A stretch of 64,000 bases of DNA from Candidatus Levyibacteriota bacterium (GCA_049519175.1 JBEKQZ010000001.1:224043-288042); one strand, 5' to 3'; counted from the first letter of the stretch, positions 25,426 through 54,828 are shown. The notes: generated from the sequence alone by a model not told the origin. Numbers and translations: made by a program.

Positions 25426-26289
25426 ATGAAGCAAACTCTTTCCATAGCTCTCGCCACTTTTAATGAAGAGAAAAATTTAGCTGCGTGTTTGGATAGCGTT
25501 AAAGGGCTAGCGGATGAAATAGTAATTGTTGACGGGACATCCTCTGACAACACGGTCAAAATCGCAAAAAGTTACGGTGCAAAAGTTTTAGTTAAAGATA
25601 ATCCGCAAATGTTCCACATTAATAAACAAAAAGCGATTGATATGACAACAGGCGATTGGGTTTTGCAATTGGACGCAGATGAGAGGGTAAGTCCTCAATT
25701 GGCAGCGGAAATAAGAAAGGTTATAGAGATGAGCGAGAAAGAACTAGTAGAATATCAAAAGCAAATTCCAAACGCTAAATTATTCGAACGGCACCAAAAA
25801 TTAATCAGCGAAAGAGATGGAGAAGTGGAAGTACAAGATAAACCATACGCGGCTTTTTTTATTCCCCGGGCAAATTTTTTCTTGGGCAGATTTTTAAAAT
25901 CGGGAGGAGTTTATCCCGACGGAGTAATCAGGCTATTTAAAAAAGGGAAAGCGTATTTGCCTTGTAAAGACGTGCATGAACAATTTGTCATTGACGGTAA
26001 AGTCGGTTGGATGCAAAATGATCTTTTGCATTACGACTCGCCAACTTTTAAAAAATATATCACCCGAAATAATCGGTATACCGCGTTTATTGCCACCCAA
26101 TATAAAGAGCAAAAACTTTCAAAAAATCCAATCAATTTCGCAAAATACGTATTTGTCTTGCCCGTTCATTGGTTTTTATTAACTTTTATTAGGCATAAGG
26201 GTTTTAAAGATTCCTGGCAGGGTTTTGTGTTTTCGTTTTTCTCCGCGCTGCGATTTCCGGTTTCGTATATAATATATTTAACATTATGA
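25426..26289 (+). CDS. GT2 family glycosyltransferase (paralog of 2202/4038)
   Basis: SIALATFNEEKNLAACLDSVKGLADEIVIVDGTSSDNT..LQLDADE. Confidence 0.8.
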   Translation: MKQTLSIALATFNEEKNLAACLDSVKGLADEIVIVDGTSSDNTVKIAKSYGAKVLVKDNPQMFHINKQKAIDMTTGDWVLQLDADERVSPQLAAEIRKVIEMSEKELVEYQKQIPNAKLFERHQKLISERDGEVEVQDKPYAAFFIPRANFFLGRFLKSGGVYPDGVIRLFKKGKAYLPCKDVHEQFVIDGKVGWMQNDLLHYDSPTFKKYITRNNRYTAFIATQYKEQKLSKNPINFAKYVFVLPVHWFLLTFIRHKGFKDSWQGFVFSFFSALRFPVSYIIYLTL

Positions 26290-27248: not shown

Positions 27249-28291
27249 AAATAGCAATTGATGTTTCGCCACTTGAAACCGGACATAAAGTAAGGGGAGT
27301 GGGTTTTTACCTCGTAAATCTTAAAGACGCTCTGTTAAAGTATTTTCCGGAAAATAATTATGTTTTTTTTCAAAGGGGTGAAAAGCTATCAAAAGACGTT
27401 GAAGCAATTCACTTTCCCTACTTTGAGCCTTTCTTCTTAGCGTTGCCAATTTATAATAAATTCAAAACCATCGTGACCGTTCATGACTTAACTCCGATAG
27501 TCTTTCCGCAGGCTTTTCCAAGAGGCATAAGGGGGGAAATTAAATGGCAAATGCAAAGATTTGCTTTAAAACGGGCAGATGTCATTTTAACGGATTCAGA
27601 GTCTTCAAAGAAAGACATCCAAAATTACGTCGGAGCTAGAGAAAATAAAATACACGTAGTCTATCTGGCGGCAGGAGAACAGTATATACAACTGGAAACT
27701 AAAAATTTTAAATCAGAAATTCAGAAACGATACGGTCTACCCGACCGGTTCGTATTATATGTTGGAGATGTTACCTGGAATAAAAACTTGCCAAGACTAA
27801 TCGATGCCGTCAAGTCAATAAATATTCCTTTGGTAATGATAGGTAAAAGTTTAGTTTCCGATACTTACGATAAAGATAACCCATGGAACGCCGATTTAAA
27901 CAGAGTTAATGAATTAACCAAAGGAAACAGCAATATTATGAAGCTGGGTTTTGTCTCGGCTGAGGAATTGGTGCAGATTTATAACCTGGCGACCGTTTTT
28001 GTGATGCCCTCTTTATATGAGGGTTTTGGCTTACCGATTCTTGAAGCAATGGCTTGCGGTTGTCCGGTAATTACCAGCAAGGAAGGTTCCATTCCTGAAG
28101 TTGCAGACGAAGCAGTTTTTTACGTCGATGCTTATGATGTCGAGAGTATTGCTGCGGGAATCAAGAAAGTATTTACTGATAAAAAACTACAGGGAGAGCT
28201 GAAAGAGAAGGGCTTAAAAAATGTGCAAAGATTTAGTTGGAGAAAAGCCGCACAGGAGACTACAGATGTTTATAAAGGAATTATTAGATGA
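27245..28291 (+). CDS. GT4 family glycosyltransferase
   Basis: EGFGLPILEAMACGCPVITSKEGSIPEV. The ATG at 27245 (MKIAIDVSPL) overlaps the upstream TGA. The ORF track starts at 27227. Confidence 0.8.
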   Translation: MKIAIDVSPLETGHKVRGVGFYLVNLKDALLKYFPENNYVFFQRGEKLSKDVEAIHFPYFEPFFLALPIYNKFKTIVTVHDLTPIVFPQAFPRGIRGEIKWQMQRFALKRADVILTDSESSKKDIQNYVGARENKIHVVYLAAGEQYIQLETKNFKSEIQKRYGLPDRFVLYVGDVTWNKNLPRLIDAVKSINIPLVMIGKSLVSDTYDKDNPWNADLNRVNELTKGNSNIMKLGFVSAEELVQIYNLATVFVMPSLYEGFGLPILEAMACGCPVITSKEGSIPEVADEAVFYVDAYDVESIAAGIKKVFTDKKLQGELKEKGLKNVQRFSWRKAAQETTDVYKGIIR

Positions 28292-29622
28292 AGAATAAGT
28301 TTTTTGAAACCGGCAAAAAACTTATCGGCCACGAATTAATTAGCGGTAGCTTTTATTTGTTTGTCGGTGGGACAATCGCAAACTTCTTAGCTTTTCTCTA
28401 CAACGTTTTTTTAGCAAGAACTCTTGCTCCCGTAGATTATGGGGTATATGTCAGCTTGCTTTCAATAATAACTTTGCTGGGAGTTCCGGTCCAGTCCTTA
28501 AACCCGATTGTCGTCAGATTTGCAACGGAATATTTTGTTAAAGGCGAGAAAGAGAAAGAAGCAAAACTATATTTTAAGATGACCCAGTCCATAATTCTAG
28601 TTTCACTTTTAATTTTTCTTGGATTCATCGCGTTTTCCGGTCAAATAAGCGACTTTTTGCACATTAATAACATTTGGTACGTAATTATGGTTGGAGGAAT
28701 AGTTTCGTTTCTATATCTAAGTTTTGTCAATAACGCTTTTATCCAAGGGTTCCTAAAATTTAACTTCTTCGCATTTATTAATGTTACGGGTTCTTTAATA
28801 AAACTACTAGCCGGCATAGTGCTTGTACTGCTTGGTATGCGGGTGTTTGGAGCTTTGGGTGGAATTTTTCTGATGACTTTTGGAGCGTTTATCATTGGCT
28901 TTTTCCCAATAAGGCAAGTATTTGCCCGTGTCAGAAATAATAAAGAAAAAATACCTCTGAAGGAAATCACTTTATATGCTTTGCCGACAATTGTAATAAT
29001 TTTCTCACTAATTTCCTTCACCTCAACCGATGTCATTTTAATTAAACATTTTTTTAATCCGCAAGATGCGGCTGCTTACGGAGGGCTTTCGCTATTAGGC
29101 AAGGTGATATTCTATTTTACCAGTATGATTCCGGCCGTCATGTTTCCGCTTATTATTAAAAGATATAATTCCGGTAAAAAGTTTAACAGCCTTTTCTATT
29201 TAGGATTGCTTTTGGTTTTAATCCCGTCGGTGTTTATAACTGGGTTCTATTTTGTTTTCCCCAAGTTTGTAATCGACTTATTCTTTTCGGGTAAAGCAAC
29301 TTATATGGCAATTGCCGGGTATGCAGGGTTTTTTGGTATATTCCTGACCTTGTTTAGTCTTATAAACGTTTGTGTAAATTTCTTCCTGTCTTTGAACAAA
29401 ACAAAAATTGCCCCACTGGTCGTGGGAGCGTCAGCGCTGCAGATAATTTTAATCTGTATTTTCCATAGTAATTTTTATCAAGTAATTGCCGATTCAATTG
29501 TGGCTTCCCTAATCCTGCTTGCGGCGCTAATAGTTTATTACTTATTTCTTTTTGCCAACCCCCAAAAAATAAAAGACTTTATACCGCTAATCGGCCTTGC
29601 GGAAATCAACGTCAATCAATAA
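28288..29622 (+). CDS. Wzx-like flippase / polysaccharide biosynthesis protein (second copy)
   Basis: 444 aa with about 12 TM helices. It is paralogous in architecture to the 746 gene. ATGA overlap. Confidence 0.7.
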   Translation: MKNKFFETGKKLIGHELISGSFYLFVGGTIANFLAFLYNVFLARTLAPVDYGVYVSLLSIITLLGVPVQSLNPIVVRFATEYFVKGEKEKEAKLYFKMTQSIILVSLLIFLGFIAFSGQISDFLHINNIWYVIMVGGIVSFLYLSFVNNAFIQGFLKFNFFAFINVTGSLIKLLAGIVLVLLGMRVFGALGGIFLMTFGAFIIGFFPIRQVFARVRNNKEKIPLKEITLYALPTIVIIFSLISFTSTDVILIKHFFNPQDAAAYGGLSLLGKVIFYFTSMIPAVMFPLIIKRYNSGKKFNSLFYLGLLLVLIPSVFITGFYFVFPKFVIDLFFSGKATYMAIAGYAGFFGIFLTLFSLINVCVNFFLSLNKTKIAPLVVGASALQIILICIFHSNFYQVIADSIVASLILLAALIVYYLFLFANPQKIKDFIPLIGLAEINVNQ

Positions 29623-29687: not shown

Positions 29688-30431
29688 ATGAAAAACGTCA
29701 GATTGTTATCTTTAGTTGTCCCCGCATATAAACAAGAAAAAACAATCGTTAAAGATATTCAGAGCCTTGCAAATGTTTTATCCGCTCTACCTTACAGATA
29801 TGAAGTCATCGTAGTGGTTGACGGATTTTTGGATAAAACTTTTGAGAAAGCAAAGTCAATAAAAAATAATAATATCAAAGTCGAAGGCTATAAGAAGAAT
29901 ATCGGCAAAGGATTTGCGATTAGATATGGAGTGGAAAAGGCAAAGGGAGATGTAATCGGTTTTATTGATGCCGGAATGGATATAGATCCGAATTCAATTT
30001 TGACACTCGTTAAATATATGCAGACTCATAATGCAGATATAGTTATAGGTAGTAAGCTGCACCCCGACTCGAATGTTAAATATCCTTTGGTTAGGAAAAT
30101 CCTTTCCTGGGGTTACCGAAATGTAGTTCATTTGTTGTTTGGGCTTAACGTAAGAGATACTCAAGCAGGATTAAAACTGTTCAAAAAAGAAGTGGCAAAA
30201 GAAATTTTTCCCAGACTTACCGTTAATACGTTTGCCTTTGATATAGAGACCTTGGTAATCGCCAAGAAAATTGGATTTAACAATGTGAGGGAAGCCCCCG
30301 TCAAGGTGAGTTTTAGAAGGGGAACAATTACAAATTTAAACTTTTTTAAGATTGCTCTAATAATGTTATTAGACACCGCACGTGTTTGGGTACAGTTAAA
30401 TATTTTTAATTCTTACGGTAAGAAAAAATAG
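29688..30431 (+). CDS. GT2 glycosyltransferase (DPM1-like)
   Basis: LSLVVPAYKQEKTI..VIVVVDGFLDKT..IDAGMDIDP..QAGLKLFKK. Confidence 0.75.
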   Translation: MKNVRLLSLVVPAYKQEKTIVKDIQSLANVLSALPYRYEVIVVVDGFLDKTFEKAKSIKNNNIKVEGYKKNIGKGFAIRYGVEKAKGDVIGFIDAGMDIDPNSILTLVKYMQTHNADIVIGSKLHPDSNVKYPLVRKILSWGYRNVVHLLFGLNVRDTQAGLKLFKKEVAKEIFPRLTVNTFAFDIETLVIAKKIGFNNVREAPVKVSFRRGTITNLNFFKIALIMLLDTARVWVQLNIFNSYGKKK

Positions 30432-30511
30432 CGATTCTGGATTTACCAAGGACCGTACGTTTATTTTTGGCTCATTTTTTGGTATAGTATGCAGCGTATC
30501 TTGGGAAATAT

Positions 30512-31288
30512 ATGAAGACAATAATATTAAGCGGAGGATTAGGTTACAGATTAAAAGAAGAAACTGAATTTAAGCCAAAGCCGATGGTGCTTATTGGAGA
30601 CAAACCAATACTTTGGCATATTATGAAAATATATGCCCACTACGGTTTTAACGATTTTATTATTGCACTGGGATACAAGGGAGATTACATAAAACAATAT
30701 TTTTTAAATCAAAAGCAATTAATTCACGATTTTACTCTTCACACAAAATCCGGTTCCGTAAGAATTCATAAATCCGACGGTAATACTGCCGACGATTTTA
30801 AAATAACATTTGTGGATACGGGAGAGGAAACTCTTCCAGGAGAAAGAATACTCCGCTTAAAAAATTATATCCCGAAGGAAGATAAAAACTTCATGGTTAC
30901 ATATGGCGATGGGGTATCCGATGTAAACATCAAGGAGTTGGTAAAATTTCATAAAAAACAAAACACTATAGGGACCATTACCGGTGTGCATCCCCGAAGT
31001 AAGTATGGACTTTTAAAGCTTAACGAAAACAGCATAGTAGATAGCTTTATAGAGAAACCGGTGCTTAAAGAAAGAACAAACGGTGGTTTTATGATTTTCA
31101 AACGCGAGTTCTTTAAGTATGTAAATCCTAACGAATATGAACATGAAGGGCTAAAAAGATTAACAAAAGAAAAACAGCTATCGGTTTTTGTCCACGACGG
31201 CTTCTGGCATTCAATGGATACCTATTCGGATGTAGAAAACCTTAATAAATTATGGATAGAAACTAAGCCTTGGAAAGTATGGAAATAA
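30512..31288 (+). CDS. rfbF: Glucose-1-phosphate cytidylyltransferase (CDP-glucose pyrophosphorylase)
   Basis: MKTIILSGGLGYRLKEETEFKPKPMVLIGDKPILWHIMKIY is near-identical in pattern to Salmonella RfbF/DdhA (MKAVILAGGLGTRL..KPKPMVEIGGKPILWHIMK). C-term PWKVWK matches RfbF APWKTWE. Confidence 0.9.
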   Translation: MKTIILSGGLGYRLKEETEFKPKPMVLIGDKPILWHIMKIYAHYGFNDFIIALGYKGDYIKQYFLNQKQLIHDFTLHTKSGSVRIHKSDGNTADDFKITFVDTGEETLPGERILRLKNYIPKEDKNFMVTYGDGVSDVNIKELVKFHKKQNTIGTITGVHPRSKYGLLKLNENSIVDSFIEKPVLKERTNGGFMIFKREFFKYVNPNEYEHEGLKRLTKEKQLSVFVHDGFWHSMDTYSDVENLNKLWIETKPWKVWK

Positions 31289-32220
31289 AAGGAAAAAAAA
31301 TTTTAGTAACTGGGGGCACGGGGTTTATAGGCAGTCATTTGGTTCAAGAGTTGGTAGATCTTAAAGCAAAGGTATCTGTTATTGATATAAAAATTGAACC
31401 AAAATCATACTTTGTGCAAAATAAATTAAAAGGAATTTGCAAATTTAAGTTCGTTGATATTCGTAATAAAAAAGCCATTGAAAGCTTTTTCTCTAAAAAC
31501 AAAATTGATTATATCTTTCATCTGGCCGCAGAGCCGATTGTTGAAAAGGCTTTTCTTAATCCGATTAATGCCTTTACAACCAATATTATGGGGACAGTAA
31601 ATCTGTTGGAAATAGTAAGAAAGAATAAAAGAATAAAAGGGATTATTGTTGCTTCTTCGGACAAAGCCTACGGTAAAACAAAATCAGCTTACACGGAAGA
31701 GTCTCCTTTAAGAGGAGATCATCCCTATGACGTGTCAAAATCCAGCATGGATCTTATTTGCCAAACGTATTACAAAACTTATGGTATTCCAATTGTGATT
31801 ACGCGTTTTGGTAATGTTTATGGTGAAGGAGATCCTAATTTGTCAAGAATTATTCCGGGAATCTTTGACGCAATTATAAAGAACAAAACGCTAAAAATAA
31901 GAAGTGACGGAACTTATGTCAGAGACTATTTATATGTTAAAGATGTTGTAGACGGATATATCTTTTTATTGAAAAATTTTAATAAAGCTGTGGGCGAAGC
32001 GTTTAACTTTTCTTCAAAAGATTCATTATCTGTTTTAGAGCTCATCAAAAAAGCGGAAAAGATACTAAATACTAAAATTAAATATAAGATTCTAAACAAT
32101 GCCCAAAATGAAATTCCCTATCAACACCTTAATGATGCAAAGATAAAAAAGTTAGGTTGGAAAAATCATTATAATTTGGAGAATTCCTTAGCTAATATAT
32201 TGGATTGGTACAAAAACTAA
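31279..32220 (+). CDS. rfbG: CDP-glucose 4,6-dehydratase-like NAD-dependent dehydratase (extended SDR)
   Basis: VTGGTGFIGSH. FHLAAEPIVEKAFLNPINAFTTNIMGTVNLLE aligns with RfbG FHMAAQPLVRLSYEQPIETYSTNVMGTVHLLE. SSDKAYG. YDVSK (YxxxK). RFGNVYGEGD. It is shorter than canonical RfbG. ATG at 31279. The ORF-track start at 31270 is TTG. Confidence 0.65.
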   Translation: MEIKGKKILVTGGTGFIGSHLVQELVDLKAKVSVIDIKIEPKSYFVQNKLKGICKFKFVDIRNKKAIESFFSKNKIDYIFHLAAEPIVEKAFLNPINAFTTNIMGTVNLLEIVRKNKRIKGIIVASSDKAYGKTKSAYTEESPLRGDHPYDVSKSSMDLICQTYYKTYGIPIVITRFGNVYGEGDPNLSRIIPGIFDAIIKNKTLKIRSDGTYVRDYLYVKDVVDGYIFLLKNFNKAVGEAFNFSSKDSLSVLELIKKAEKILNTKIKYKILNNAQNEIPYQHLNDAKIKKLGWKNHYNLENSLANILDWYKN

Positions 32221-32222
32221 TT

Positions 32223-33725
32223 ATGAAAAGAAAAATACCTACAGTAATGGTTTCTCAACATCCGGACAATGCCAGTAAACCTTCTTGGCACACCGACGCA
32301 TACATTCGAGATCACGATGAAGTAAAAGAATGTTACTATGCTTTTTCAAAATTGGGAGTTTCCGAATACAAATGGGATTGGGAAGGAAAATTTGTTGATG
32401 AATCTGTTTTTGAAAGATTAATTAGTGAATATCCCACTTTTTTTCATAAAAACCAGTTAGGTAGAGATAAGTTTCTAACTTTCCGCTTGCCGGACTATAG
32501 AGTTAATACGGAATTTAGATTGGGAAGAGCTTTGATGGGAATATTAAGTGCAGCGGGGCTTGCTGAGGAAATAGGATTTTTCTCTCCTCCGATATTTGAA
32601 GCAATATTGTCCATGACCCAATCGGCGGAAGAAATGATTGGAATTCAAGAAGCATTTCTGGAGTTGGCAAGCCTTAAGAATCCTCTCTACAAAAATAGTT
32701 TTATGAAGAATATTAATATTATCCCACTTTTTGAGGATATAAATAGAATTATGGATTCCGCTACAATTTTAGAGAAATATATTCATTTGCATAAAAGTAA
32801 ATTTGGAGTATTCCCTTCGTACATGAGGCCGTATTTAGCTAGATCTGATTCCGCTTTAAGCTCCGGCTTGGTACCTTCTGTTTTGGCAATTAAGGTTGCT
32901 TTATCTAAATACGCAAAGTTTACCAAAGACACAGGTATTGAAACATTCCCGATTATTGGCGCCGGATCTCTCCCTTTTCGTGGCGGATCAACGCCTTATT
33001 CAGTTAAGCAATTCATAAAAGAATATAGTGGAATAAAAACCATGTTGGTTCAAAGTGCTTTTCAATATGATTTTCCGGAGAAAGATGTCTTAAGTGCGAT
33101 AAAAGCAATCGAGAAGGCCTTACCTAAAAGTAAGGCTCTAATAGTCAGCAGTACGGATGAAAGAAAAATAAGGAGAGTCATTAATGATTTCGAGCCTTTT
33201 TACCAGAAAACCGTTAAAAAGATCGGGTCTACTGTGTACAGTATTGCAATTTATATGCCCGCAAGAAGAGAAAGGCTAAAACATACAGGACTGCTTAAGT
33301 ATCCAAGGTTGGTACAGGGAGTGAAAGTTCCCAGAGCAATAAACTTTACGGCCTCTCTTTACTCAATCGGTATTCCGCCTGAGTTTATTGGCGTAGGAAG
33401 AGGAATAAGAGCAGCTAAAAAAAATGGAAATCTATCGATTGTTGAAAAAACATATTTTAATTTCCATAATGACCTAGAGAAAGCGGGAGGATATTTGAAT
33501 AAAAAAGTACTCTCAGTTTTGTCTAAAAAATCGCAGGGATGGAAAGAAATACAGGAGGATGTAAGGATAATAGAGGGTTATTTAGGCAAAAAATTTGAGC
33601 CGAAAACACCGGAAGAGAAAGCTCATCAAGTTTTTAGTGAAAGTATTTATGAAAGGTTTACGCAGGGAATTGAAATGACAGACCTGATAGAAGAAGCGGC
33701 TGTTCTTAGAAGAAGTTTGGGCTAG
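32223..33725 (+). CDS. ppcA: Archaeal-type phosphoenolpyruvate carboxylase (PEPcase_2 family)
   Basis: N-term MKRKIPTVMVSQHPDNASKPSW ... EVKECYYAFSKLGVSEYKWDWEGKFVDE matches the hallmark archaeal PEPC N-terminus (..IPRTMSTQHPDN.. / ..WD.EGK.VD..). About 500 aa. ATG at 32223. The ORF-track start at 32205 is TTG. Confidence 0.65.
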   Translation: MKRKIPTVMVSQHPDNASKPSWHTDAYIRDHDEVKECYYAFSKLGVSEYKWDWEGKFVDESVFERLISEYPTFFHKNQLGRDKFLTFRLPDYRVNTEFRLGRALMGILSAAGLAEEIGFFSPPIFEAILSMTQSAEEMIGIQEAFLELASLKNPLYKNSFMKNINIIPLFEDINRIMDSATILEKYIHLHKSKFGVFPSYMRPYLARSDSALSSGLVPSVLAIKVALSKYAKFTKDTGIETFPIIGAGSLPFRGGSTPYSVKQFIKEYSGIKTMLVQSAFQYDFPEKDVLSAIKAIEKALPKSKALIVSSTDERKIRRVINDFEPFYQKTVKKIGSTVYSIAIYMPARRERLKHTGLLKYPRLVQGVKVPRAINFTASLYSIGIPPEFIGVGRGIRAAKKNGNLSIVEKTYFNFHNDLEKAGGYLNKKVLSVLSKKSQGWKEIQEDVRIIEGYLGKKFEPKTPEEKAHQVFSESIYERFTQGIEMTDLIEEAAVLRRSLG

Positions 33726-33801
33726 ATATGGATTTGATGGAATCTTTAGGAAGGTATATGATTGGCGTATTAAAAATGAATAGTAAATAAGAATTTGTAT
33801 A

Positions 33802-34653
33802 ATGAGACCAAGAAATTTAAAAACTAAAATTTTTCTCGATAGCGGAAATCCTTCCGATACCAAAGCAACACTAAAGCTTCTCGGATTTTTAGATGGACAA
33901 ACAACGAATCCTTCTTTAATAGCAAAAAGTTCGAAGGCAATAGAAAGAATCGAAAAAGGAGAAAAATTTTCAGCAGAAGAAATTTACGATTTTTACAAAA
34001 AAACAGCAGAAGAAATTTCAAACCAGATTCCAAATGGCTCCGTATCGGTTGAAGTATATGCAGATTCAAATACTAAAGCGGAAGAAATGTTAGATACCGG
34101 TAAGAAGTTTTTCTCGTGGATTCCTAATGCTCACATAAAACTTCCTATAACAAGAGAAGGACTTAAGGCAGCGAAGGAAATGATAAGTATGGGAATGAGG
34201 GTTAATATGACTCTTTGTTTTAATCAAGAGCAGGCGGCTGCAGTATATGATGCAACAAGAAGAGCTACTGCGGGTCAGGTCTTTATTTCTCCATTTGTCG
34301 GAAGACTTGATGATATTAATCAAAACGGAATAAGTCTTATTTCCAACATACTGGAAATGTATAGAGAAGGAGACGGACACGTAGAAGTTCTAGCGGCCAG
34401 CATTAGAAGTATAGACCATTTTATGGCATGTTTGAATTTAGGATGCGACATAATCACTGCTCCTTTTCCCGTGCTTAAAGAATGGGCAGATAAAGGTTTT
34501 CAGACTGCAGGCTTTGATTATAAAGTTGATTTGAAAGACATTCCTTATAAAAATATTAAGATGGAGAATTGGGAAAATATAAATATCGAAAATGAATTGA
34601 CAAATAAGGGAATCGAAAAATTCTGCGCCGATTGGACTGCCCTCATTGTCTAA
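33802..34653 (+). CDS. Transaldolase / fructose-6-phosphate aldolase family protein (short TalC/FSA type with insertion)
   Basis: KIFLDSGNPSD..GFLDGQTTNPSLI and the Schiff-base lysine context HIKLPITREGLKAAKEM. Confidence 0.75.
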   Translation: MRPRNLKTKIFLDSGNPSDTKATLKLLGFLDGQTTNPSLIAKSSKAIERIEKGEKFSAEEIYDFYKKTAEEISNQIPNGSVSVEVYADSNTKAEEMLDTGKKFFSWIPNAHIKLPITREGLKAAKEMISMGMRVNMTLCFNQEQAAAVYDATRRATAGQVFISPFVGRLDDINQNGISLISNILEMYREGDGHVEVLAASIRSIDHFMACLNLGCDIITAPFPVLKEWADKGFQTAGFDYKVDLKDIPYKNIKMENWENINIENELTNKGIEKFCADWTALIV

Positions 34654-34654
34654 C

Positions 34655-35737
34655 ATGAAAATTAAATCAAGAATTAAAGACTTCGAAGTAATATTTGCCC
34701 GAGACTTTGATTTTGTAAATGAGTTTCTTCGATTAGAACATTATGTTGTTATTGTGGGTTCAAATGCGCATTCTATTTACAAAAAAAAGATTTTCAGTAG
34801 ATTTCCCAAAGATAAAGTAATAGTAATCGAGCTAGGTGAAAAAAACAAAACTATTGGAACGGTTATCAAAGTGTATGAAAAGCTCTTAGAGCAAACGGCA
34901 AAGAAAAATTTAACAATCATTTCATTTGGTGGAGGAATAAATCAGGACGTTGTTGGATTTATTGCCTCAACTTTGTATAGGGGAGTCAATTGGATTTATG
35001 TTCCAACCACGCTGTTAGCAATGGCAGATAGCGCCATCGGACTTAAAACTTCGCTTAATTTCAGGCATTATAAGAACGTTCTGGGAACTTTTTATCCTCC
35101 TTCGAAAATTATTATCAATGTCGATTTCTTAAAAACTCTTCCTAAGTTAAATTATTTTAGCGGAATAGGGGAAATTATTAAATTTTATTTAATGAAAAAG
35201 AACGCCATTGCGGATTTGGATAACACACTAAAGAAAATAGAAAAATTAAAAAGCGGGAAGAATAGGCAAGATATTCTTAATATCATCGAGGAAAGCATGA
35301 AAATTAAACTAAGCTACATGGAAGGCGACGAATTTGATACGGGAAGAAGAAATCTTTTAAATTACGGACATGAATTTGGACATGCGCTTGAGCCGGCATC
35401 TGCATTTAATATTCCCCACGGAGTAGCTATTTTAATTGGCATAATATTTGCAAACGTCGTTTCTTATAAGAGAAAGATGATTAGTAAGCAAGTTTATGAG
35501 GATTTAAATAGGCGCTTGTTGGTACCAAACATTCCCCGTGACGTTGTAAATATCAAAAAAAGATATTTTGACAAAGACACAATTTTAGAAAATATGAAAA
35601 AAGATAAAAAAAGAATTGGTAATGGTTTGGTACTTGTTCTTCCGCGAAAAGATTTCTCTCTTATTAAAGTTAATGATTTGAGCATTGACGAATATACCTC
35701 AAGTTTGATAGAGTTGAGAAAAATAATAGGAGTATAG
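34655..35737 (+). CDS. 3-dehydroquinate synthase-like sugar-phosphate cyclase (DHQS superfamily)
   Basis: GGGINQDVVGFIAST, VPTTLLAMADSAIGLKT, and the metal-binding motifs NYGHEFGHALE and HGVAILIG. 361 aa. ATG at 34655. The ORF-track start at 34646 is TTG. Confidence 0.75.
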   Translation: MKIKSRIKDFEVIFARDFDFVNEFLRLEHYVVIVGSNAHSIYKKKIFSRFPKDKVIVIELGEKNKTIGTVIKVYEKLLEQTAKKNLTIISFGGGINQDVVGFIASTLYRGVNWIYVPTTLLAMADSAIGLKTSLNFRHYKNVLGTFYPPSKIIINVDFLKTLPKLNYFSGIGEIIKFYLMKKNAIADLDNTLKKIEKLKSGKNRQDILNIIEESMKIKLSYMEGDEFDTGRRNLLNYGHEFGHALEPASAFNIPHGVAILIGIIFANVVSYKRKMISKQVYEDLNRRLLVPNIPRDVVNIKKRYFDKDTILENMKKDKKRIGNGLVLVLPRKDFSLIKVNDLSIDEYTSSLIELRKIIGV

Positions 35738-35744
35738 TAAAAAT

Positions 35745-36527
35745 ATGAATTTATTAGAATTAAAAATGGTTGAACTCCTGAAAAACTTAAGGGATAAGTT
35801 TGGAGTGACAGCCCTTAAGGCTGAATTTGAAGCAGAGGCCTCCCGGGTTAACGAAGTAATGCGCCTAAAAGACGTTGCCGATAAGGCGGATTTGGATTTA
35901 GTGATTAAAATCGGCGGAGGAGAAGCAGTTACGGATATGTTTGAGGCGCAACATATCGGAGTGGACCTTCTTATCGCCCCCATGGTTGAAACCCCTTATG
36001 CGCTGCGTAAGTATTTAGAAGCGGTAGAGAAATATTTCTCCAAAGATTTAAGAGCGAAAATGCATTTTGGGATAAACATTGAAACAGAATTGGCTTGCCT
36101 AAAATTCCCGGAGATGCTTTTGGAGAAAAAGGTCGATTTAATCGATACGATTACCGTTGGAAGAGTTGATCTCTCCGGTTCAATCGGTCTTCCGAGAGAT
36201 CAAATTAACAGCGCTGAAGTTTATATACTTGCTGAAACTGTTTTTACTCTGGCGCGAGCAAAAAAGTTCAGAACTGCAATGGGTGGCGGTATCGCTGTTG
36301 AGGCAATACCTTTTATAAAAAAACTCGCGGCAAAAAAACTTTTAGATCGCTTTGAAACCAGAAAAATTGTATTCGAAGTTCCCGATAATTTTACAAACGT
36401 AGAGAAAGGAATTATTCAAGCTAATATATTTGAATTAATGTGGCTGGAAAATAAAAGAAATTACTACGAAAGAATTTTCCGGGAAGACGAAAAAAGAATA
36501 GAAATGTTAAAAACGAGAATTAAGTAG
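35745..36527 (+). CDS. HpcH/HpaI (CitE-like) class II aldolase/lyase family protein
   Basis: IAPMVETPYAL (PM[IV]ET motif) and TVGRVDLSGSIG (G..DLs.s.G motif) fit the HpcH/HpaI/CitE fold. The family call is less certain than for its neighbours. Confidence 0.5.
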   Translation: MNLLELKMVELLKNLRDKFGVTALKAEFEAEASRVNEVMRLKDVADKADLDLVIKIGGGEAVTDMFEAQHIGVDLLIAPMVETPYALRKYLEAVEKYFSKDLRAKMHFGINIETELACLKFPEMLLEKKVDLIDTITVGRVDLSGSIGLPRDQINSAEVYILAETVFTLARAKKFRTAMGGGIAVEAIPFIKKLAAKKLLDRFETRKIVFEVPDNFTNVEKGIIQANIFELMWLENKRNYYERIFREDEKRIEMLKTRIK

Positions 36528-36535
36528 CGAAATAA

Positions 36536-38356
36536 ATGATAAAGTTAAGCGACTACGTATGTAATTTCTTTTCCGCAAAAGGCATAACCCATGCTTTCGT
36601 ATTGGGGGGAGGAGGCAACATGCACCTCATAGACTCCGTTGATAAAAGTAAACTCGAATATGTGTGTAACCTACATGAACAAGCAGCTTCTTATGCCGCG
36701 GAAGGATATGCTAGGGTAACAGGAAAACCGGGTCTTGTTATTATCACAACCGGTCCGGGAGGAACAAATACAATGTCGGGAGTTTTAGGCTGTTGGCAGG
36801 ATTCAATTCCGATGTTTGTTATTTCCGGACAAATCGCCAGGAGATTTATGGGCGCGGGGACAAAAATGGGAGTAAGGCAGTTGGGGGTCCAAGAGATGAA
36901 TATCGTTGACGTGGCAAAGCCAATGGTTAAATATGCTTCGGTAGTAATGGACCCATTAGATATTAGATATGAACTGGAAAAAGCCTGGCATTTGTCTACA
37001 ACCGGCAGACAGGGGCCGGTTTGGCTAGATATTCCACTTGATGTGCAAAGCGCGATGATTGATGAAAAGAAATTAAAAAAGTTTAATCCTAAGGAAATTA
37101 CCCCCGATTATATTACTAACAAAAAAGCAATAGAAAAATTGGTAAAACAGACGCTCAAAAAGATTTCAGAGTCCCAAAGGCCCGTCTTATACGCGGGAAA
37201 CGGAATTAGGCTGAGTGGTGCTTATGCTGATTTCTTAAAACTAATAAACCTCTTAAAAATTCCGGTTTTAACCAGTTATGTTGGATACGATATGGTGCCA
37301 TCGAACCATCCTTATTTTTTTGGCAGAGCTCATGCCATGGGACAAAGAGCCGGGAATTTAATTATTCAAAACAGTGACTTATTGTTTAACATCGGTGCAA
37401 GATTGGATGTTCTCACGATGGGTTATGAAAAAGAAAAATTTGCCAGGGCAGCTTATAAAATTATGGTAGATATTGATAAACACGAAATAGAAAAGCCCAC
37501 GTTGTATGTCGACTTAGGTATAAATACCGACGCAAAGTTATTTATCCAAGAAATGATTAGGCAACTTAAAAAGAAACCGCTTAGATTAAATATTAAGTCC
37601 TGGTTGGATTATGGACGAAGGATGAATAAGAAATATCCAAATGTCCCGAAAGAACTATGGGAAGGAAAAAAATATGTTAACCCGTATTGCTTTATCGAAG
37701 AAAGCTGTAAGCAATTTAAGCCCAATGAAATAATTGTTCTGGCTAATGGGGTAAACGTTTTAAACTGTTCGTATCAAGCTTTTATCGTAAAAAAGGGACA
37801 ACGTATAATTCTTAATCTTGGATCAGCTCCCATTGGGTATGGGCTACCTGCGGCGATAGGCGTAAGTTTTGCCTTCAATAATAAAAAAAGGATAATTTGC
37901 ATGGAAGGCGACGGCAGTATTCAGGTGAACATTCAAGAATTACAAACAGTAAGGCACTACAATCTTCCGATTAAAATATTTATACACAGTAACGGAGGAT
38001 ACTTATCCAATCGGAACACCCAGAAAAATTTGTTTGGAGGAAGATATGTAGCATCGGGAACAGACAGCCATATTACTTCTCCCGATTTTGTAAAAGTAGG
38101 AAAAGCTTATGGAATTAAATCAATAAGAATAAATAACCACAAAGAGATGAAAGCAAAAATAAAGTATGTCCTGAATTATCCGGGACCGATTATTTGTGAT
38201 ATTAATGCGCTTAAAGATATGAGTTTAACGCCTAAGTTGTTAACAAAAAAGAGGGCCGATGGAAGTTTTTATTCGCCTGCACTTGAGGATATGTGGCCTT
38301 TCTTGAGTAAGGAAGAATTGAAGGAGGAGATGTTCATTCCATTGCTAGATGAATAA
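36536..38356 (+). CDS. Thiamine-diphosphate-dependent enzyme, acetolactate synthase large-subunit-like (YerE-like candidate)
   Basis: N-terminal Pyr domain: ITHAFVLGGGGNMHLID..ASYAAEGYARVTGKPGLVIITTGPGGTN. C-terminal ThDP motif: GSAPIGYGLPAAIG..CMEGDGSIQVNIQELQT..HSNGGY. 606 aa. Confidence 0.85.
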   Translation: MIKLSDYVCNFFSAKGITHAFVLGGGGNMHLIDSVDKSKLEYVCNLHEQAASYAAEGYARVTGKPGLVIITTGPGGTNTMSGVLGCWQDSIPMFVISGQIARRFMGAGTKMGVRQLGVQEMNIVDVAKPMVKYASVVMDPLDIRYELEKAWHLSTTGRQGPVWLDIPLDVQSAMIDEKKLKKFNPKEITPDYITNKKAIEKLVKQTLKKISESQRPVLYAGNGIRLSGAYADFLKLINLLKIPVLTSYVGYDMVPSNHPYFFGRAHAMGQRAGNLIIQNSDLLFNIGARLDVLTMGYEKEKFARAAYKIMVDIDKHEIEKPTLYVDLGINTDAKLFIQEMIRQLKKKPLRLNIKSWLDYGRRMNKKYPNVPKELWEGKKYVNPYCFIEESCKQFKPNEIIVLANGVNVLNCSYQAFIVKKGQRIILNLGSAPIGYGLPAAIGVSFAFNNKKRIICMEGDGSIQVNIQELQTVRHYNLPIKIFIHSNGGYLSNRNTQKNLFGGRYVASGTDSHITSPDFVKVGKAYGIKSIRINNHKEMKAKIKYVLNYPGPIICDINALKDMSLTPKLLTKKRADGSFYSPALEDMWPFLSKEELKEEMFIPLLDE

Positions 38357-38360
38357 TAGA

Positions 38361-39227
38361 ATGAATATACTGATAACAGGAGCTAACGGATTTCTAGGTA
38401 AGCATCTCAAAGAAAATCTTGGCAATAAATACACTCTCTTTACCCCGTCCCACAAAGAACTAGATCTTCTTGATGAAAATGCAGTCGAGAAATTTTTTAA
38501 GACACATAAGATAGACGTAGTTATTCATACCGCTTTAGTAGGTGGAAGCAGAAAAGAGGAAGAGACGGAGAGCGCTTTAGAGCAAAACTTAAGGATGTTT
38601 TTTAATATCGTGAGGAACAAAAAACATTTTAAGAAAATGATTCATTGTGGCTCCGGAGCGGAATATGATAAGCGTTTTCCAATAGCGAAAGTTAAAGAAG
38701 AAGATTTCGATAAAAGAGTTCCGGCAGATGAATATGGGTTTGCCAAGTATCTCTGTTCAAAATATATCGAAAACAGCGAGGATATAGTTTGTTTAAGAAT
38801 TTTTGCGTTATTTGGTAAAGGTGAAGATTACAGATACCGTTTTATTTCTAACGCGATGTGCAGGAACATTTTTGGCTTACCGATAACGATGAGACAGAAT
38901 GTTTACTTTGATTATATTTACATCAAAGACATAGTTAGAATAGTAGAATATTTTATAGGGCATAAGGCAAAACATAAATTTTACAACGCCGGGACAGGGA
39001 AGAGAGTGAGCTTAAAAACAATCGCCAAGAAAATCAATGAAATAGCAGATATTAAGTCAAAAGTGCTTATTAAAAAAACAGGATTAAATAAAGAATATTC
39101 GTGTAACAACAAAAGACTGGTCAAGGAACTCGGCAATTTTAAGTTCACGGATTTTAATGATTATATGAATGAGCTCTATTTATGGTATAAAGAGAATAAG
39201 AAATTAATTAAGAAGGATTTATTATGA
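38361..39227 (+). CDS. NAD(P)-dependent sugar epimerase/reductase (extended SDR, RmlD/GDP-fucose-synthase-like)
   Basis: MNILITGANGFLGKHL and YGFAKYLCSKY (YxxxK). The ORF track starts at 38349 (also ATG). Confidence 0.7.
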   Translation: MNILITGANGFLGKHLKENLGNKYTLFTPSHKELDLLDENAVEKFFKTHKIDVVIHTALVGGSRKEEETESALEQNLRMFFNIVRNKKHFKKMIHCGSGAEYDKRFPIAKVKEEDFDKRVPADEYGFAKYLCSKYIENSEDIVCLRIFALFGKGEDYRYRFISNAMCRNIFGLPITMRQNVYFDYIYIKDIVRIVEYFIGHKAKHKFYNAGTGKRVSLKTIAKKINEIADIKSKVLIKKTGLNKEYSCNNKRLVKELGNFKFTDFNDYMNELYLWYKENKKLIKKDLL

Positions 39228-39892
39228 AAAGAAAGACGGTTTTATTAACGGGGGCATCCAGGGGAATGGGAGCCGCAATTTATAAAAAGTTAAAAAAAGA
39301 TTACAACGTACTTACTCCGACAAGAAAGGAATTGGATTTATCGAATAACGCCTCTATAGACACATTTATTAAAAAGAATAAAAATACAAAAGTAGATATT
39401 ATTATTAACAACGCAGGAATTAATTTTCCACAATGGATTGAAGAGATGTCGGATGAAAATATCGAAAATACGGTGCAAACTAATTTAGTTGCCCCAATCA
39501 GGCTAATTAGAGGATTTGTTGGTAACATGAAAGAGAATCATTGGGGAAGGATTATAAACATAAGCTCGATGTTTGGAATTGTCGCAAGAGGTAAGCAGGT
39601 GCTCTACTCGGCAACAAAACACGGCATTAACGGCGTGACTAAAGCGTTAGCGCTTGAGCTGGCAAAAGACAATATCTTAGTTAACTCCGTTTGTCCCGGT
39701 TTCACAAAAACAGATATGGTTCTTAAAAAGAACAATCCGGAAAAAATTGCACTGCTTGAAAAAGACATTCCTTTGGGGAGACTGGCCGAACCTTCCGAAA
39801 TTGCAAATCTTGTTAAATTTCTGATTTCCGATGAGAGCACATATATTACTGGCTCCTGTATTCTTATCGATGGAGGGTTTACATCTAGATAA
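39224..39892 (+). CDS. Classical SDR oxidoreductase (FabG-like ketoreductase)
   Basis: VLLTGASRGMGAAI, NNAGI and YSATKHGINGVTKALALELA (catalytic YxxxK). Confidence 0.8.
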   Translation: MKRKTVLLTGASRGMGAAIYKKLKKDYNVLTPTRKELDLSNNASIDTFIKKNKNTKVDIIINNAGINFPQWIEEMSDENIENTVQTNLVAPIRLIRGFVGNMKENHWGRIINISSMFGIVARGKQVLYSATKHGINGVTKALALELAKDNILVNSVCPGFTKTDMVLKKNNPEKIALLEKDIPLGRLAEPSEIANLVKFLISDESTYITGSCILIDGGFTSR

Positions 39893-39897
39893 ATTTT

Positions 39898-40668
39898 ATG
39901 GCAATAAAAAATAATACTAGGAAAGTACCGTTATTGAGTTTATCTTTTAACGTTTATAACGAAGCAGCAAATGTGGAGAGAACATATAAGGAATGTAAAA
40001 ATATCCTTATTAAAGCAAAGATTCCTTATGAAATAATTCTGGTTGAAGGGGGTTCTAAAGACAATTCATGGAAAGTCTTACAAGCCTTGGCTAAAAAGAA
40101 TAAAGACTGCAGAGTTTTTCAGACGAAAATGGAACCAGGAAGAAAAGTAAATAAAGGAATGAGGGAAGCGCGGGGGAAATATTTTGGATATATGTGTTCG
40201 GACGGGCAGGACAACCCGAATGTTTTACCAAAATTCATAAAACTACTGGAAAGTAATAAAGCGGATTTCGTAAAAGCAAGAAGAGTTAACAGGATTTTTT
40301 GGGAGAGAAAAGTAATTTCAAGAGTGTACAATAGATTATCTGATTTACTTTTTGGGTTAGGTCTTAGTGATATTAATATGCATCCCAAAGTATTCAGGAG
40401 GGAACTGGTTAAAGGAATCAACCTTATTTCTGTTGGTGAAAGCATAGATTTAGAAGTTGTGTTACGGGCCCAGAAAAAAGGATATAGGATAGTCGAAATA
40501 CCGGTAAGGGAGAGAGTTAGAGGTGGAGGAAAATCAAGCGTCAATCCCTCAGTAGCACTGCATATGCTTACGGACATGCTTTCGTACAAATGGGGAAGGA
40601 AAAGCAAAATGTTAAATAGAAACATTAGCGGGGAAAAGCCTTCAAGGAAAGGATCTATAGCTAGCTAA
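39898..40668 (+). CDS. GT2-like glycosyltransferase (divergent; VEGGSKDNS in place of DDGS)
   Basis: LSLSFNVYNEAANV..IILVEGGSKDNS..CSDGQDNP. It has the general DPM1-like GT2 layout but atypical signature residues. Confidence 0.55.
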   Translation: MAIKNNTRKVPLLSLSFNVYNEAANVERTYKECKNILIKAKIPYEIILVEGGSKDNSWKVLQALAKKNKDCRVFQTKMEPGRKVNKGMREARGKYFGYMCSDGQDNPNVLPKFIKLLESNKADFVKARRVNRIFWERKVISRVYNRLSDLLFGLGLSDINMHPKVFRRELVKGINLISVGESIDLEVVLRAQKKGYRIVEIPVRERVRGGGKSSVNPSVALHMLTDMLSYKWGRKSKMLNRNISGEKPSRKGSIAS

Positions 40669-40677
40669 TTTTAGAAT

Positions 40678-41634
40678 ATGAAGAATAATCCGATCTATAA
40701 TACGATAAAATTAAAAGTTTTTAATAGAGGTTCTGTGGCGATATATCCAATAGTTTTAAAAAATCTTATGATAGATAAAGTTCGAACACTATTTTTATTA
40801 ATTCTAGTTAAAACTATTCGTTCCCGTTTTCTCGTAAAAACAATACGGGAGATTGACATTGATAAGCAGTCTATTTTGCTACGGCTTGAGAATGGGACAT
40901 CGTTTTTTCTTCCTACAGATAAGATTGACTCTTTAAATGGACTGCTGAGCGGAAAATTCGAAGAATCGGAAACCAGCCGCATGATTAAATATATTAAAAA
41001 GGGAGATGTAGTTTTAGATATCGGAGCAAATTATGGATTTTATACTGTTTTATTTTCGAAGTGGGTTGGTCAAGAAGGCAGGGTGCACGCTTTTGAACCC
41101 TTGCCATGGGCGATAACTCTGCTGGAGAAAAATTTATTGCTTAATAAAGCAACAGAAAACACTATTGTTAATAAATTTGGGTTGGGGGATAAAAAAAACA
41201 CAGCCGTAATATATAAATATGCTTGGTGTGATTCGGGATGGAGTTCTATGGAAAAACATGGTTGGATACCAACCAGCAATTCAAGATGTAAAATCATTAC
41301 GCTTGACGCTTACGTTAAAGAAAAGAAAATAAATAAGGTAGATTTCATAAAATGCGATATCGAAGGCGGGGAGCTTCCTGTATTTAAAGGGGCTCGTGCT
41401 ACATTAGCGAAATTTTCTCCTGTGATAATCTTCGAAGTTCTAAAGGCGTACGAAAAAGATTTTAACTATAAACCGCACGAGCTATATGATTATTTAACTT
41501 CATTAAATTATGACATATATAACGCGAGAGGAGATAAATTACGTTTAATTAAAAGTAATGAAAGTCATAGTATGTGGGGGTATTATTTAGCGATTCCACA
41601 TAAACATAAAAATACATTCAGCAAACATGAGTAA
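40678..41634 (+). CDS. FkbM-family SAM-dependent methyltransferase with N-terminal extension
   Basis: VLDIGANYGFYTV..VHAFEP..FIKCDIEGGELPVFKGA is typical of the FkbM (Methyltransf_21) domain. Confidence 0.75.
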   Translation: MKNNPIYNTIKLKVFNRGSVAIYPIVLKNLMIDKVRTLFLLILVKTIRSRFLVKTIREIDIDKQSILLRLENGTSFFLPTDKIDSLNGLLSGKFEESETSRMIKYIKKGDVVLDIGANYGFYTVLFSKWVGQEGRVHAFEPLPWAITLLEKNLLLNKATENTIVNKFGLGDKKNTAVIYKYAWCDSGWSSMEKHGWIPTSNSRCKIITLDAYVKEKKINKVDFIKCDIEGGELPVFKGARATLAKFSPVIIFEVLKAYEKDFNYKPHELYDYLTSLNYDIYNARGDKLRLIKSNESHSMWGYYLAIPHKHKNTFSKHE

Positions 41635-54791: not shown

Positions 54792-54828
54792 AGATTATAT
54801 ATATTATATACATAATACCTTAAATAAC

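Follow-up and report, generated by a model that had tools for sequence, protein, structure and literature searches.

We analysed a 64,000-nucleotide stretch of DNA from a Candidatus Levyibacteriota bacterium (GCA_049519175.1 JBEKQZ010000001.1:224043-288042; hereafter the window), a piece of a 580-kb metagenome contig, with a focus on nine open reading frames (ORFs) at positions 30512-39892 that form a putative branched-sugar module. The closest named relatives of the window proteins belong to Levybacteria and other Microgenomates (Patescibacteria). The host is a Levybacteria-like Patescibacterium from groundwater with a tiny genome, in which the module is embedded in a 64-kb glycosylation super-locus. 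An initial annotation of the sequence had described the nine genes as co-directional, tightly packed and located inside a glycosylation locus. We found them at the same coordinates, all on the + strand, with intergenic gaps of at most 80 bp or overlapping. Pfam and NCBIfam confirmed the family of each ORF, and thus upheld all nine family labels of that annotation:

30512..31288, + strand: RfbF-like sugar-1-phosphate cytidylyltransferase (PF00483 NTP_transferase; TIGR02623)
31270..32220, + strand: RfbG-like, divergent extended short-chain dehydrogenase/reductase (SDR) of the NDP-hexose 4,6-dehydratase type (TIGR02622; gene-caller start 31279)
32205..33725, + strand: archaeal-type phosphoenolpyruvate (PEP) carboxylase (TIGR02751; PF14010, 420 bits; gene-caller start 32223)
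33802..34653, + strand: short-type transaldolase of the TAL_FSA family (PF00923, 176 bits)
34646..35737, + strand: dehydroquinate synthase (DHQS)-like NAD/metal enzyme of the TIGR04425 family (DHQS N- and C-terminal domains)
35745..36527, + strand: divergent HpcH/HpaI-type class II (pyruvate) aldolase, 260 aa (PF03328, 30 bits, cut-off 25)
36536..38356, + strand: YerE/JanthE-like thiamine diphosphate (ThDP)-dependent carboligase, 606 aa (PF02776, PF00205, PF02775)
38349..39227, + strand: extended SDR (SDRx), RmlD/GDP-fucose-synthase-like (PF01370, 98 bits; YGFAK motif)
39224..39892, + strand: classical FabG-like SDR (SDRc), 222 aa (adh_short_C2, 157 bits)

A YerE-like ThDP enzyme and presumed CDP-sugar precursor genes

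All three ThDP domains (N, M and C) were matched in the putative carboligase, which carries the canonical GDG motif (GDGSIQVN). Its best match in the PDB was 8RPH (409 bits, E-value 2e-121, residues 2-599 aligned, about 36-40% identity), the structure of JanthE from Janthinobacterium sp. HH01. As characterised, JanthE is YerE-like and joins alpha-keto acids to ketones; its physiological substrates are unknown (PMC12188165, PMC12247030). The initial annotation had named as counter-evidence to its YerE idea a position within the IlvB acetolactate synthases together with ilvN/ilvC. However, acetolactate synthases in the PDB reached 223 bits at most, and scores were lower still for glyoxylate carboligase (165 bits) and pyruvate oxidase (118 bits). 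Scores on the NCBIfam acetolactate synthase models were far under their cut-offs (368 versus 538), and neither ilvN nor ilvC was present in the Pfam annotation of window ORFs of at least 120 aa. PDB 5AHK, which we take to be YerE of Pseudomonas protegens, gave 216 bits. A relationship to IolD, MenD or cyclohexanedione hydrolase was considered and dropped, as such enzymes fell outside the top matches. The public gene call for the carboligase has 578 aa, with a start equivalent to 36620. This is probably too short and 36536 the better start, since the JanthE alignment begins at residue 2 of the 606-aa ORF.

We recovered the JanthE locus and found genes for a cytidylyltransferase, an RfbG-like dehydratase, an RfbH-like protein, JanthE, an epimerase-family reductase, an acetaldehyde dehydrogenase, a DmpG-type aldolase, an epimerase and a family 2 glycosyltransferase (GT2). 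This architecture is that of the published erwiniose cluster (ErwE/F/I/J, Pectobacterium atrosepticum), which belongs to a 'unifying scheme' for long acyl-branched sugars together with MMAR_2331/2332 (caryophyllose, Mycobacterium marinum) and MyGE (gastriose; Steitz et al. 2022, PMC9306805). Since JanthE is the closest characterised relative and its locus has the erwiniose architecture, the YerE idea of the initial annotation was well founded: the ThDP enzyme, the rfbF/rfbG-like pair and the SDRs fit a CDP-linked 4-C-branched 6-deoxyhexose. The prediction that the ThDP enzyme is a YerE-like branched-sugar carboligase is thus supported; it would act on a CDP-4-keto sugar.

The genes for the presumed acceptor sugar stand at the start of the module. 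The RfbF-like protein aligned end-to-end (residues 1-257) with the 255 positions of TIGR02623, the glucose-1-phosphate cytidylyltransferase model (275 bits, cut-off 300), and over its full length with a glucose-1-phosphate cytidylyltransferase of known structure (PDB 1TZF, 205 bits). It is 42% identical to the cytidylyltransferase of the JanthE cluster, and orthologues occur in 40 of 80 related loci described below. The RfbG-like protein gave 205 bits with TIGR02622, which models CDP-glucose 4,6-dehydratase (cut-off 278), and nearly the same, 179 bits, with the dTDP-glucose dehydratase model; its PDB matches were dTDP-glucose 4,6-dehydratase (141 bits) and CDP-glucose 4,6-dehydratase (124 bits). 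It contains the motifs SSDKAYG and YDVSK. Among 4,6-dehydratases, an Asp-Lys pair next to the catalytic Ser/Thr is specific to the CDP enzymes. Orthologues with 48-68% identity adjoin the cytidylyltransferase gene in three related loci (L091, L014 and L025), two of which (L014 and L025) also encode a true RfbH (E1). Both family assignments of the initial annotation agree with these matches, though both proteins score below the equivalog cut-offs, which makes 'strongly RfbF-like' a slight overstatement.

As already pointed out in that annotation, the 3,6-dideoxyhexose genes for E1 and E3 (ddhC/ddhD) are absent: tblastn found no homologues of RfbH/E1, E3 or NeuB within the 64-kb window, and the E1/E3-free flanks of the module extend over 30 kb upstream and 24 kb downstream. 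The RfbH of related loci scored 669 bits on NF011936 and contains the Fe-S Cys motif. E1 is usual in the wider family (28 of 43 well-covered loci), and its absence here is a local variation.

Conservation of the module

A scan of one genome per species revealed 329 loci with relatives of the DHQS-like protein. We inspected the best 80, which come from Patescibacteria, Sulfuricurvum, Nitrospira, Nitrosospira, Sulfuriferula, Geobacter, Paenibacillus, Effusibacillus, Bacteroidota, Chloroflexota, Melainabacteria and Spirochaetes, by tblastn of the window proteins and by clustering of all neighbouring ORFs. Of these, 43 were well covered, with flanks of 6 kb or more on either side, and contained:

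SDRc (FabG-like): 41 of 43
HpcH-like or NeuB-like enzyme: 38 of 43 (29 + 9, never both)
4,6-dehydratase-like SDR: 38 of 43
ThDP enzyme: 36 of 43
cytidylyltransferase: 28 of 43
RfbH: 28 of 43

The block as found in the window recurs in independent metagenome contigs (L082, L090, L002 and L007), and its core neighbourhood is kept in Proteobacteria, Firmicutes, Nitrospirota, Bacteroidota, Chloroflexota and the Candidate Phyla Radiation. Thus, the gene arrangement is not due to chance, and the coincidental insertion that the initial annotation had considered does not fit loci that keep the cassette. A PgfS/ArnC-like GT2, a small membrane protein and a large GT-C-type glycosyltransferase often follow in related loci; the small membrane protein, which has no family match, is possibly a GtrA-type flippase.

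In a neighbour-joining tree (no bootstrap; comparison set without the YerE, ErwE and MMAR_2332 sequences) the ThDP enzymes grouped by cassette type and not by host. Those associated with a DmpG-type aldolase (L083, L084, L011a and JanthE) stood apart from all DHQS/HpcH-associated ones, including that of the window. Both types coexist in locus L011 (1792-11974), where tandem ThDP genes each have their own cassette, acetaldehyde dehydrogenase-DmpG-ThDP1 and ThDP2-SDRx-SDRc-DHQS-HpcH. The two cassettes share one cytidylyltransferase/dehydratase pair and the ThDP paralogues belong to different clades, which suggests that two different branched sugars are made from one precursor.

A putative donor cassette

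The HpcH-like protein is divergent in its N-terminal half. A PDB search with the single sequence was uninformative and a family profile was needed; it matched YfaU, HpaI and DDG aldolases. All 29 family members tested match PF03328 (best E-value 3.8e-13). The invariant residues E113 and D142 align with the acidic residues of the (V/I)E and (A/V)DLS motifs in YfaU and HpaI; that is, the acidic metal ligands were found, while the catalytic Arg was not located. We dropped a phosphonate route via PEP mutase and phosphonopyruvate decarboxylase, because the 260-aa protein and all its 29 relatives match HpcH_HpaI and not PEP mutase, and the ThDP enzyme, with 606 aa, resembles JanthE.

HpcH-like genes occur in 49 of the 80 loci. 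In 14 loci, for example L043 and L045 of Chloroflexota, a NeuB/PseI-like PEP-condensing enzyme of about 360 aa stands in their place beside the SDR/DHQS-like pair, and no well-covered locus has both. The two enzymes, both of types that form 3-deoxy-2-ulosonates, appear to be exchangeable. A second exchange concerns the DHQS-like protein itself. In two sister loci, P0128 and L091 (1-9440), it is missing together with SDRc and a haloacid dehalogenase-type (HAD) phosphatase is present instead; PEP carboxylase, HpcH-like protein (53% identical), ThDP enzyme and SDRx are kept, in P0128 along with the transaldolase. As the phosphatase takes the place of the DHQS-like/SDRc pair, this exchange is most simply read as a sign that the product of the aldolase would carry a phosphate, removed either by hydrolysis (HAD) or by elimination and reduction (DHQS-like protein and SDRc). 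Both exchanges, the tandem arrangement of L011 and the grouping of ThDP enzymes by cassette indicate that HpcH-like aldolase, DHQS-like protein and SDRc form a cassette making the donor of the ThDP enzyme.

The DHQS-like protein scored 380 bits on TIGR04425 (cut-off 400), a model named 'AroB-related putative sugar phosphate phospholyase (cyclizing)', versus 260 bits on the aroB model TIGR01357 (cut-off 305). The initial annotation had proposed a comparison of active-site residues among AroB and related cyclases. It showed that the family hardly varies, or not at all, at the AroB motif positions (R112, D128, K134, N144, E176, K179, K221, R235, N239, H242, H246, H258, K321/K322); these residues align with the AroB motifs of five structures, including the metal ligands (Glu and two His). 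[quoted passage not shown] The sole consistent difference seen is residue 243, directly after the first metal-binding His: a nearly invariant Glu (GHEFGH) in the family, and Thr (GHTxGH) in all five best AroB structures. Glu243 is a candidate determinant of altered chemistry. Other cyclases scored lower, namely DOIS with 112 bits, the EEVS ValA with 106 bits and the chain of 5TPR, which we take to be DDGS, with 82 bits. An identity as C7-cyclitol cyclase (EEVS, DDGS or DOIS) was dropped on account of these scores below AroB and the AroB-like motif residues, and the sugar-phosphate cyclase of the ebo cluster (PMC5133447) because the gene set differs. Shikimate-pathway families were absent from the recurrent families of the 80 loci and from the window, and the neighbours are glycan genes. 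In a tblastn search of plasmids with the DHQS-like protein, AroB of Fusobacterium was the sole match.

SDRc is the most conserved partner of the DHQS-like protein. It was found in 76 of the 80 loci, always on the same strand and typically immediately upstream. It displays the motifs TGASRGMG, NNAG and S...YSATK, and we propose that it may be a keto-reductase acting together with the DHQS-like enzyme. SDRx has orthologues in 35 of the 80 loci and in the HAD-variant loci. Its best NCBIfam matches are weak (heptose epimerase, Fcl and RmlD), and it is not orthologous to the reductase adjoining JanthE. SDRx is proposed to reduce the C1' ketone of the side chain, the role of YerF, or to act on the sugar as epimerase/reductase.

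PEP carboxylase and transaldolase

The PEP carboxylase scored 459 bits on TIGR02751 (cut-off 146), aligned over residues 11-506. Archaeal-type PEP carboxylase is common in Patescibacteria, and in 8 of 12 Patescibacterial contexts examined it lies within a branched-sugar module. It is accompanied by an HpcH-type aldolase in the window, L014, L082, P0128, L090 and L091, and by a DmpG-type aldolase in L083 and L084. The element shared by all eight modules is thus a class II pyruvate aldolase. Aldolases of this class (HpaI, BphI/DmpG, macrophomate synthase) decarboxylate oxaloacetate to the pyruvate enolate, which is why we infer that PEP carboxylase may feed the aldolase. We know of no description of a dedicated PEP carboxylase inside a glycan cluster. 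The other four contexts (L085, L087, L088 and L089) contain a PEP carboxylase-Aminotran_1_2 pair that resembles a PEP to oxaloacetate to aspartate unit.

The transaldolase is best matched in the PDB by short transaldolases (3R8R, 114 bits) versus 56-73 bits for fructose-6-phosphate aldolase (FSA), and all NCBIfam equivalogs stayed under cut-off. The sequence shows the Lys of HIKLP, the Glu of SVEV and the Phe of SPFVGRLDD. A Schiff-base Lys, a catalytic Glu and a Phe in the SPF/YVGR motif are the signature of transaldolases, with Gln and Tyr instead of Glu and Phe in FSA. Transaldolase genes were found in the cluster in the window, L002, L003, L007, L082 and P0128, and in L002 and L003 they lie between cassette genes. 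PEP carboxylase and transaldolase are lineage-specific accessories of some Patescibacteria, outside the conserved core. Most loci lack both, so neither is indispensable for the chemistry. The initial annotation had seen no place in any standard sugar-nucleotide pathway for four central-metabolism-type genes. This requires revision for the aldolase, as an HpcH/citrate-lyase-type enzyme is expected in the published scheme, and PEP carboxylase and transaldolase are the accessories.

Proposed pathway and alternatives

We assign a probability of roughly 0.55 to the reading that the module builds a CDP-activated 4-C-acyl-branched 6-deoxyhexose of the YerE or 'unifying scheme' kind, with an unusual cassette for the side-chain donor. 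Based on homology and context, the RfbF-like enzyme would convert glucose-1-phosphate and CTP to CDP-glucose, and the RfbG-like enzyme CDP-glucose to CDP-4-keto-6-deoxyglucose. In parallel, the transaldolase may provide erythrose-4-phosphate (E4P) as aldehyde partner, and PEP carboxylase may provide oxaloacetate, to be decarboxylated by the aldolase to the pyruvate enolate or used as a pyruvate source. From these, the HpcH-like aldolase could form a DAHP-like 2-keto-3-deoxy-7-phospho acid. By NAD+/metal chemistry, the DHQS-like enzyme would then oxidise C5, eliminate the C7 phosphate and return the hydride, which would go back to C5 without cyclisation and with tautomerisation as the next step, or to C7 in the fashion of NDP-hexose 4,6-dehydratases. 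Reduction of the remaining ketone by SDRc would give 4,5,6-trihydroxy-2-oxoheptanoate, a 3,7-dideoxyheptulosonate. The ThDP enzyme is predicted, again from homology and context, to decarboxylate this keto-acid donor and to add the remainder to C4 of CDP-4-keto-6-deoxyglucose. Reduction of the C1' ketone by an SDR would produce a 1,3,4,5-tetrahydroxyhexyl branch, and a GT2 together with GT-C enzymes of the locus would place the sugar on the cell surface. Since the window has no E1/E3, the sugar core would keep its 3-OH (6-deoxy, not 3,6-dideoxy). After decarboxylation and C1' reduction the predicted donor has the constitution, stereochemistry left aside, of the side chain of caryophyllose, which is 1,3,4,5-tetrahydroxyhexyl (PMC5706390).

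Several points weigh against this acyl-branched sugar pathway. All of its steps are predictions from sequence and synteny, and the RfbF-like and RfbG-like scores lie under the NCBIfam equivalog cut-offs. The aldehyde partner could be E4P, glyceraldehyde-3-phosphate or another compound, and the pairing of the SDRs with ketones is tentative. PEP carboxylase and transaldolase are missing from most loci; in 4 of 12 contexts PEP carboxylase is a housekeeping-looking gene paired with an aminotransferase, and its placement here could reflect a general supply of pyruvate and oxaloacetate. Part of the scheme may already have been described. A further point is chemical. The enol-pyranose intermediate of a true DHQS cyclises readily, so that a non-cyclising outcome needs a special explanation, and every AroB catalytic residue is kept.

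One alternative takes the DHQS-like protein as a true cyclase. DAHP made by the aldolase would yield 3-dehydroquinate or an epimer, and the adjacent SDRc, which could be a dehydroquinate reductase, a quinate-like cyclitol. The cyclic ketone would serve as acceptor of the ThDP enzyme or be joined otherwise to the CDP-sugar, giving a carbocycle-bearing or caryose/bradyrhizose-like sugar. Besides the catalytic and substrate-binding motif residues, which are all kept, the word 'cyclizing' in the TIGR04425 name speaks for such a route, as does the finding that YerE-like enzymes take cyclic ketones in vitro (PMC12247030). However, dehydroquinate and quinate are not alpha-keto acids, which leaves the ThDP donor unexplained, and rfbF/G/H, usual in the clusters, already give the canonical ketone acceptor. 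The HAD phosphatase of the two sister loci fits phosphate removal, not ring formation, and the 80 loci contain no conserved acyl- or ether-forming enzyme that would attach a free cyclitol. On balance, we consider a carbocyclic product unlikely. In the same way it is improbable that TIGR04425 proteins are genuine cyclases of a sugar-nucleotide pathway, with a PEP carboxylase-driven decarboxylative aldol reaction providing the precursor of a carbocycle-bearing branched sugar on the surface of these bacteria, Patescibacteria among them. The carbocycle, derived from dehydroquinate or quinate or fused in a caryose/bradyrhizose-like manner, would be attached by ThDP chemistry. If true, genes for carbocyclic monosaccharides would be known for the first time, and a DHQS homologue and PEP carboxylase would gain a new role.

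The order of events could also be reversed, with the phosphorylated aldolase product coupled to the CDP-sugar first and the bound side chain dephosphorylated later by the DHQS-like protein and SDR, or by HAD. Such late tailoring fits the exchange of HAD for the DHQS-like/SDR pair and all synteny data equally well. It would also avoid spontaneous cyclisation, as the C2 ketone would be consumed or reduced before phosphate elimination. We regard it as quite unlikely in view of the invariant K221 and R235, the latter aligned with the carboxylate-binding Arg of AroB, which suggest a DAHP-like pyranose with a carboxylate as substrate and not a bulky CDP-linked one.

A yersiniose-like C2 branch from pyruvate, as envisaged in the initial annotation, would leave PEP carboxylase, transaldolase, DHQS-like protein and HpcH-like aldolase to another purpose. 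Although pyruvate is a substrate of JanthE and of YerE in vitro (PMC12188165, PMC12247030) and PEP carboxylase could simply raise the supply of pyruvate and oxaloacetate, this now appears very unlikely. The DHQS-like protein, SDRc and aldolase accompany the ThDP gene, as a dedicated keto-acid donor cassette, in most well-covered loci (43, from different phyla), and the ThDP clades follow cassette type. By published precedent, aldolases encoded in such clusters go with longer donors, and ErwE does not accept pyruvate (PMC9306805). Finally, that PEP carboxylase, transaldolase and AroB are housekeeping genes brought by chance into the glycosylation locus of a compact genome is hardly credible and largely refuted by synteny: although the transaldolase is a normal pentose-phosphate enzyme and 4 of 12 PEP carboxylase contexts hold a housekeeping-looking aminotransferase pair, the DHQS-like protein scores under the aroB cut-off and matches TIGR04425 better, its neighbourhood is conserved across phyla, PEP carboxylase lies in branched-sugar modules with two aldolase types in 8 of 12 contexts, and transaldolase sits amid cassette genes in L002 and L003.

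Surroundings of the module

The window (1-64000) contains 52 ORFs of 120 aa or more, all on the + strand, and those with Pfam matches are glycosylation genes nearly throughout. They include 13 GT-C-type membrane proteins (7 PMT_2/PTPS_related, 3 GT87 and 3 YfhO), 10 GT2, 3 family 4 glycosyltransferases (GT4) and several methyltransferases. Further features are:

746-2200 and 28288-29622, + strand: two Wzx-like flippases
39898..40668, + strand: GT2 with ArnC/PgfS-like catalytic domain (PF00535, 77 bits; best NCBIfam matches ArnC and PgfS, about 47 bits)
40678..41634, + strand: FkbM-family methyltransferase (PF05050, 88 bits)
54781-56574, + strand: Acyl_transf_3 protein

The GT2 directly downstream of the module has no C-terminal membrane helices and is a candidate for the first user of the activated branched sugar. 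A GT2 also follows the module in L007, L082, L090 and P0128, and a PgfS-like GT2 (219 bits) occurs in 41 of the 80 related loci. The FkbM methyltransferase is not conserved in related loci; it is a possible tailoring enzyme whose membership in the module is uncertain.

Along the window, soluble-enzyme genes (26000-28000 and 30000-42000) have a positive AT skew (+0.06 to +0.16) and the highest GC skew, and AT skew is negative across most membrane-protein genes. This pattern probably results from amino-acid composition rather than foreign origin. A Fic/DOC and HTH_DeoR gene (61276-62253) lies between an ORF with only the GT4 N-domain (190 aa, 60667-61239) and a full-length GT4 (62258-63379), an arrangement that may be the remnant of a disrupted or duplicated glycosyltransferase. 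Five large ORFs of 392-720 aa gave no Pfam match at E-values up to 1e-5 (14819-16189, 19452-20939, 52055-53569, 53613-54791 and 57299-59461).

Discussion

If the acyl-branched 6-deoxyhexose pathway holds, a large, phylum-spanning orphan family of AroB paralogues, with 329 genome loci found in a single scan, gains a function, the removal of phosphate from a sugar side-chain precursor, which is thereby deoxygenated. It would explain the origin of the 6-deoxy polyhydroxyalkyl donors of caryophyllose-type sugars and extend retro-biosynthetic prediction from branched-sugar clusters. Ultra-small Patescibacteria with scant biosynthetic capacity would devote nine genes, among them a recruited PEP carboxylase and a transaldolase, to one exotic surface sugar, an outlay that would point to the weight of surface glycans in episymbiotic life. 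In addition, the aldolases and the ThDP and DHQS-like enzymes would be attractive biocatalysts for tertiary alcohols and deoxy keto acids.

More than 200 YerE-type acyl-branched sugar clusters were reportedly detected in a 2024 in-silico survey. The general kind, a YerE-type route to acyl-branched CDP-sugars whose aldolase is encoded in the cluster, is known already (PMC9306805, PMC12247030). In the searchable literature we found no paper on TIGR04425, none on the full gene combination and none that joins YerE, bradyrhizose or caryophyllose with dehydroquinate synthase or dehydroquinate, respectively. Within that literature, the DHQS-like/SDR combination as obligatory pair of a large sub-type, the HAD exchange, the recruitment of PEP carboxylase and transaldolase in Patescibacteria and the E1-less version appear to be undescribed. 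The statement of the initial annotation that this gene combination had not been seen described can therefore be retained for the DHQS-like/SDR, PEP carboxylase and transaldolase part, but not for the HpcH/citrate-lyase aldolase, which is already part of the published scheme (PMC9306805).

With regard to known systems, the downstream genes resemble three-component glycosylation (CsbB/GtcA/YfhO, ArnC/ArnT), in that related loci combine a GT2, a small membrane protein and a large GT-C. In the window an ArnC-like GT2 stands right after the module and 13 GT-C genes are present; unlike in those systems, C-terminal membrane helices are missing from this GT2, and no small gene of the GtrA type was recognised beside it. 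The DHQS-like protein has the two-domain fold of AroB and the AroB motif residues associated with NAD, metal, phosphate and carboxylate. It differs in its score below cut-off, the Glu in place of Thr, the pairing with an SDR, the usual company of a ThDP enzyme and loci free of shikimate context among those examined. The oxaloacetate-decarboxylating aldolases of the class II fold (HpaI, BphI/DmpG, macrophomate synthase) offer a reason why PEP carboxylase adjoins modules with HpcH-type as well as DmpG-type aldolases; the window aldolase itself may use oxaloacetate.

The YerE/YerF pathway to yersiniose A in Yersinia pseudotuberculosis likewise attaches an acyl group to a CDP-4-keto-deoxyhexose by a ThDP enzyme and then reduces it (PMC9306805, PMC12247030). 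In contrast to the window module, it uses pyruvate as donor (C2 branch) and a 3,6-dideoxy acceptor made via E1/E3, and needs no aldolase. JanthE is the closest characterised relative of the window enzyme and its cluster has the order rfbF-rfbG-rfbH-ThDP-reductase-aldolase; unlike the window enzyme, it has a CDG instead of a GDG motif, a cassette of acetaldehyde dehydrogenase and DmpG-type aldolase, and a place in a separate clade.

Most features are shared with the 'unifying scheme': CDP-hexose genes, a cluster-encoded pyruvate aldolase giving a 4-hydroxy-2-oxo acid, a YerE-like carboligase, one or more NAD(P)H reductases and a glycosyltransferase. The window module departs from it by the DHQS-like protein and SDRc as obligatory partners of the aldolase (the TIGR04425 status of the published clusters left aside), by the addition of PEP carboxylase and transaldolase, by the lack of E1/E3, which would lead to a 6-deoxy product, and by its Patescibacterial host. 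In the caryophyllose cluster MMAR_2331 likewise belongs to the aldolase/citrate-lyase (HpcH) family, and the side chain of caryophyllose is the one predicted for the window.

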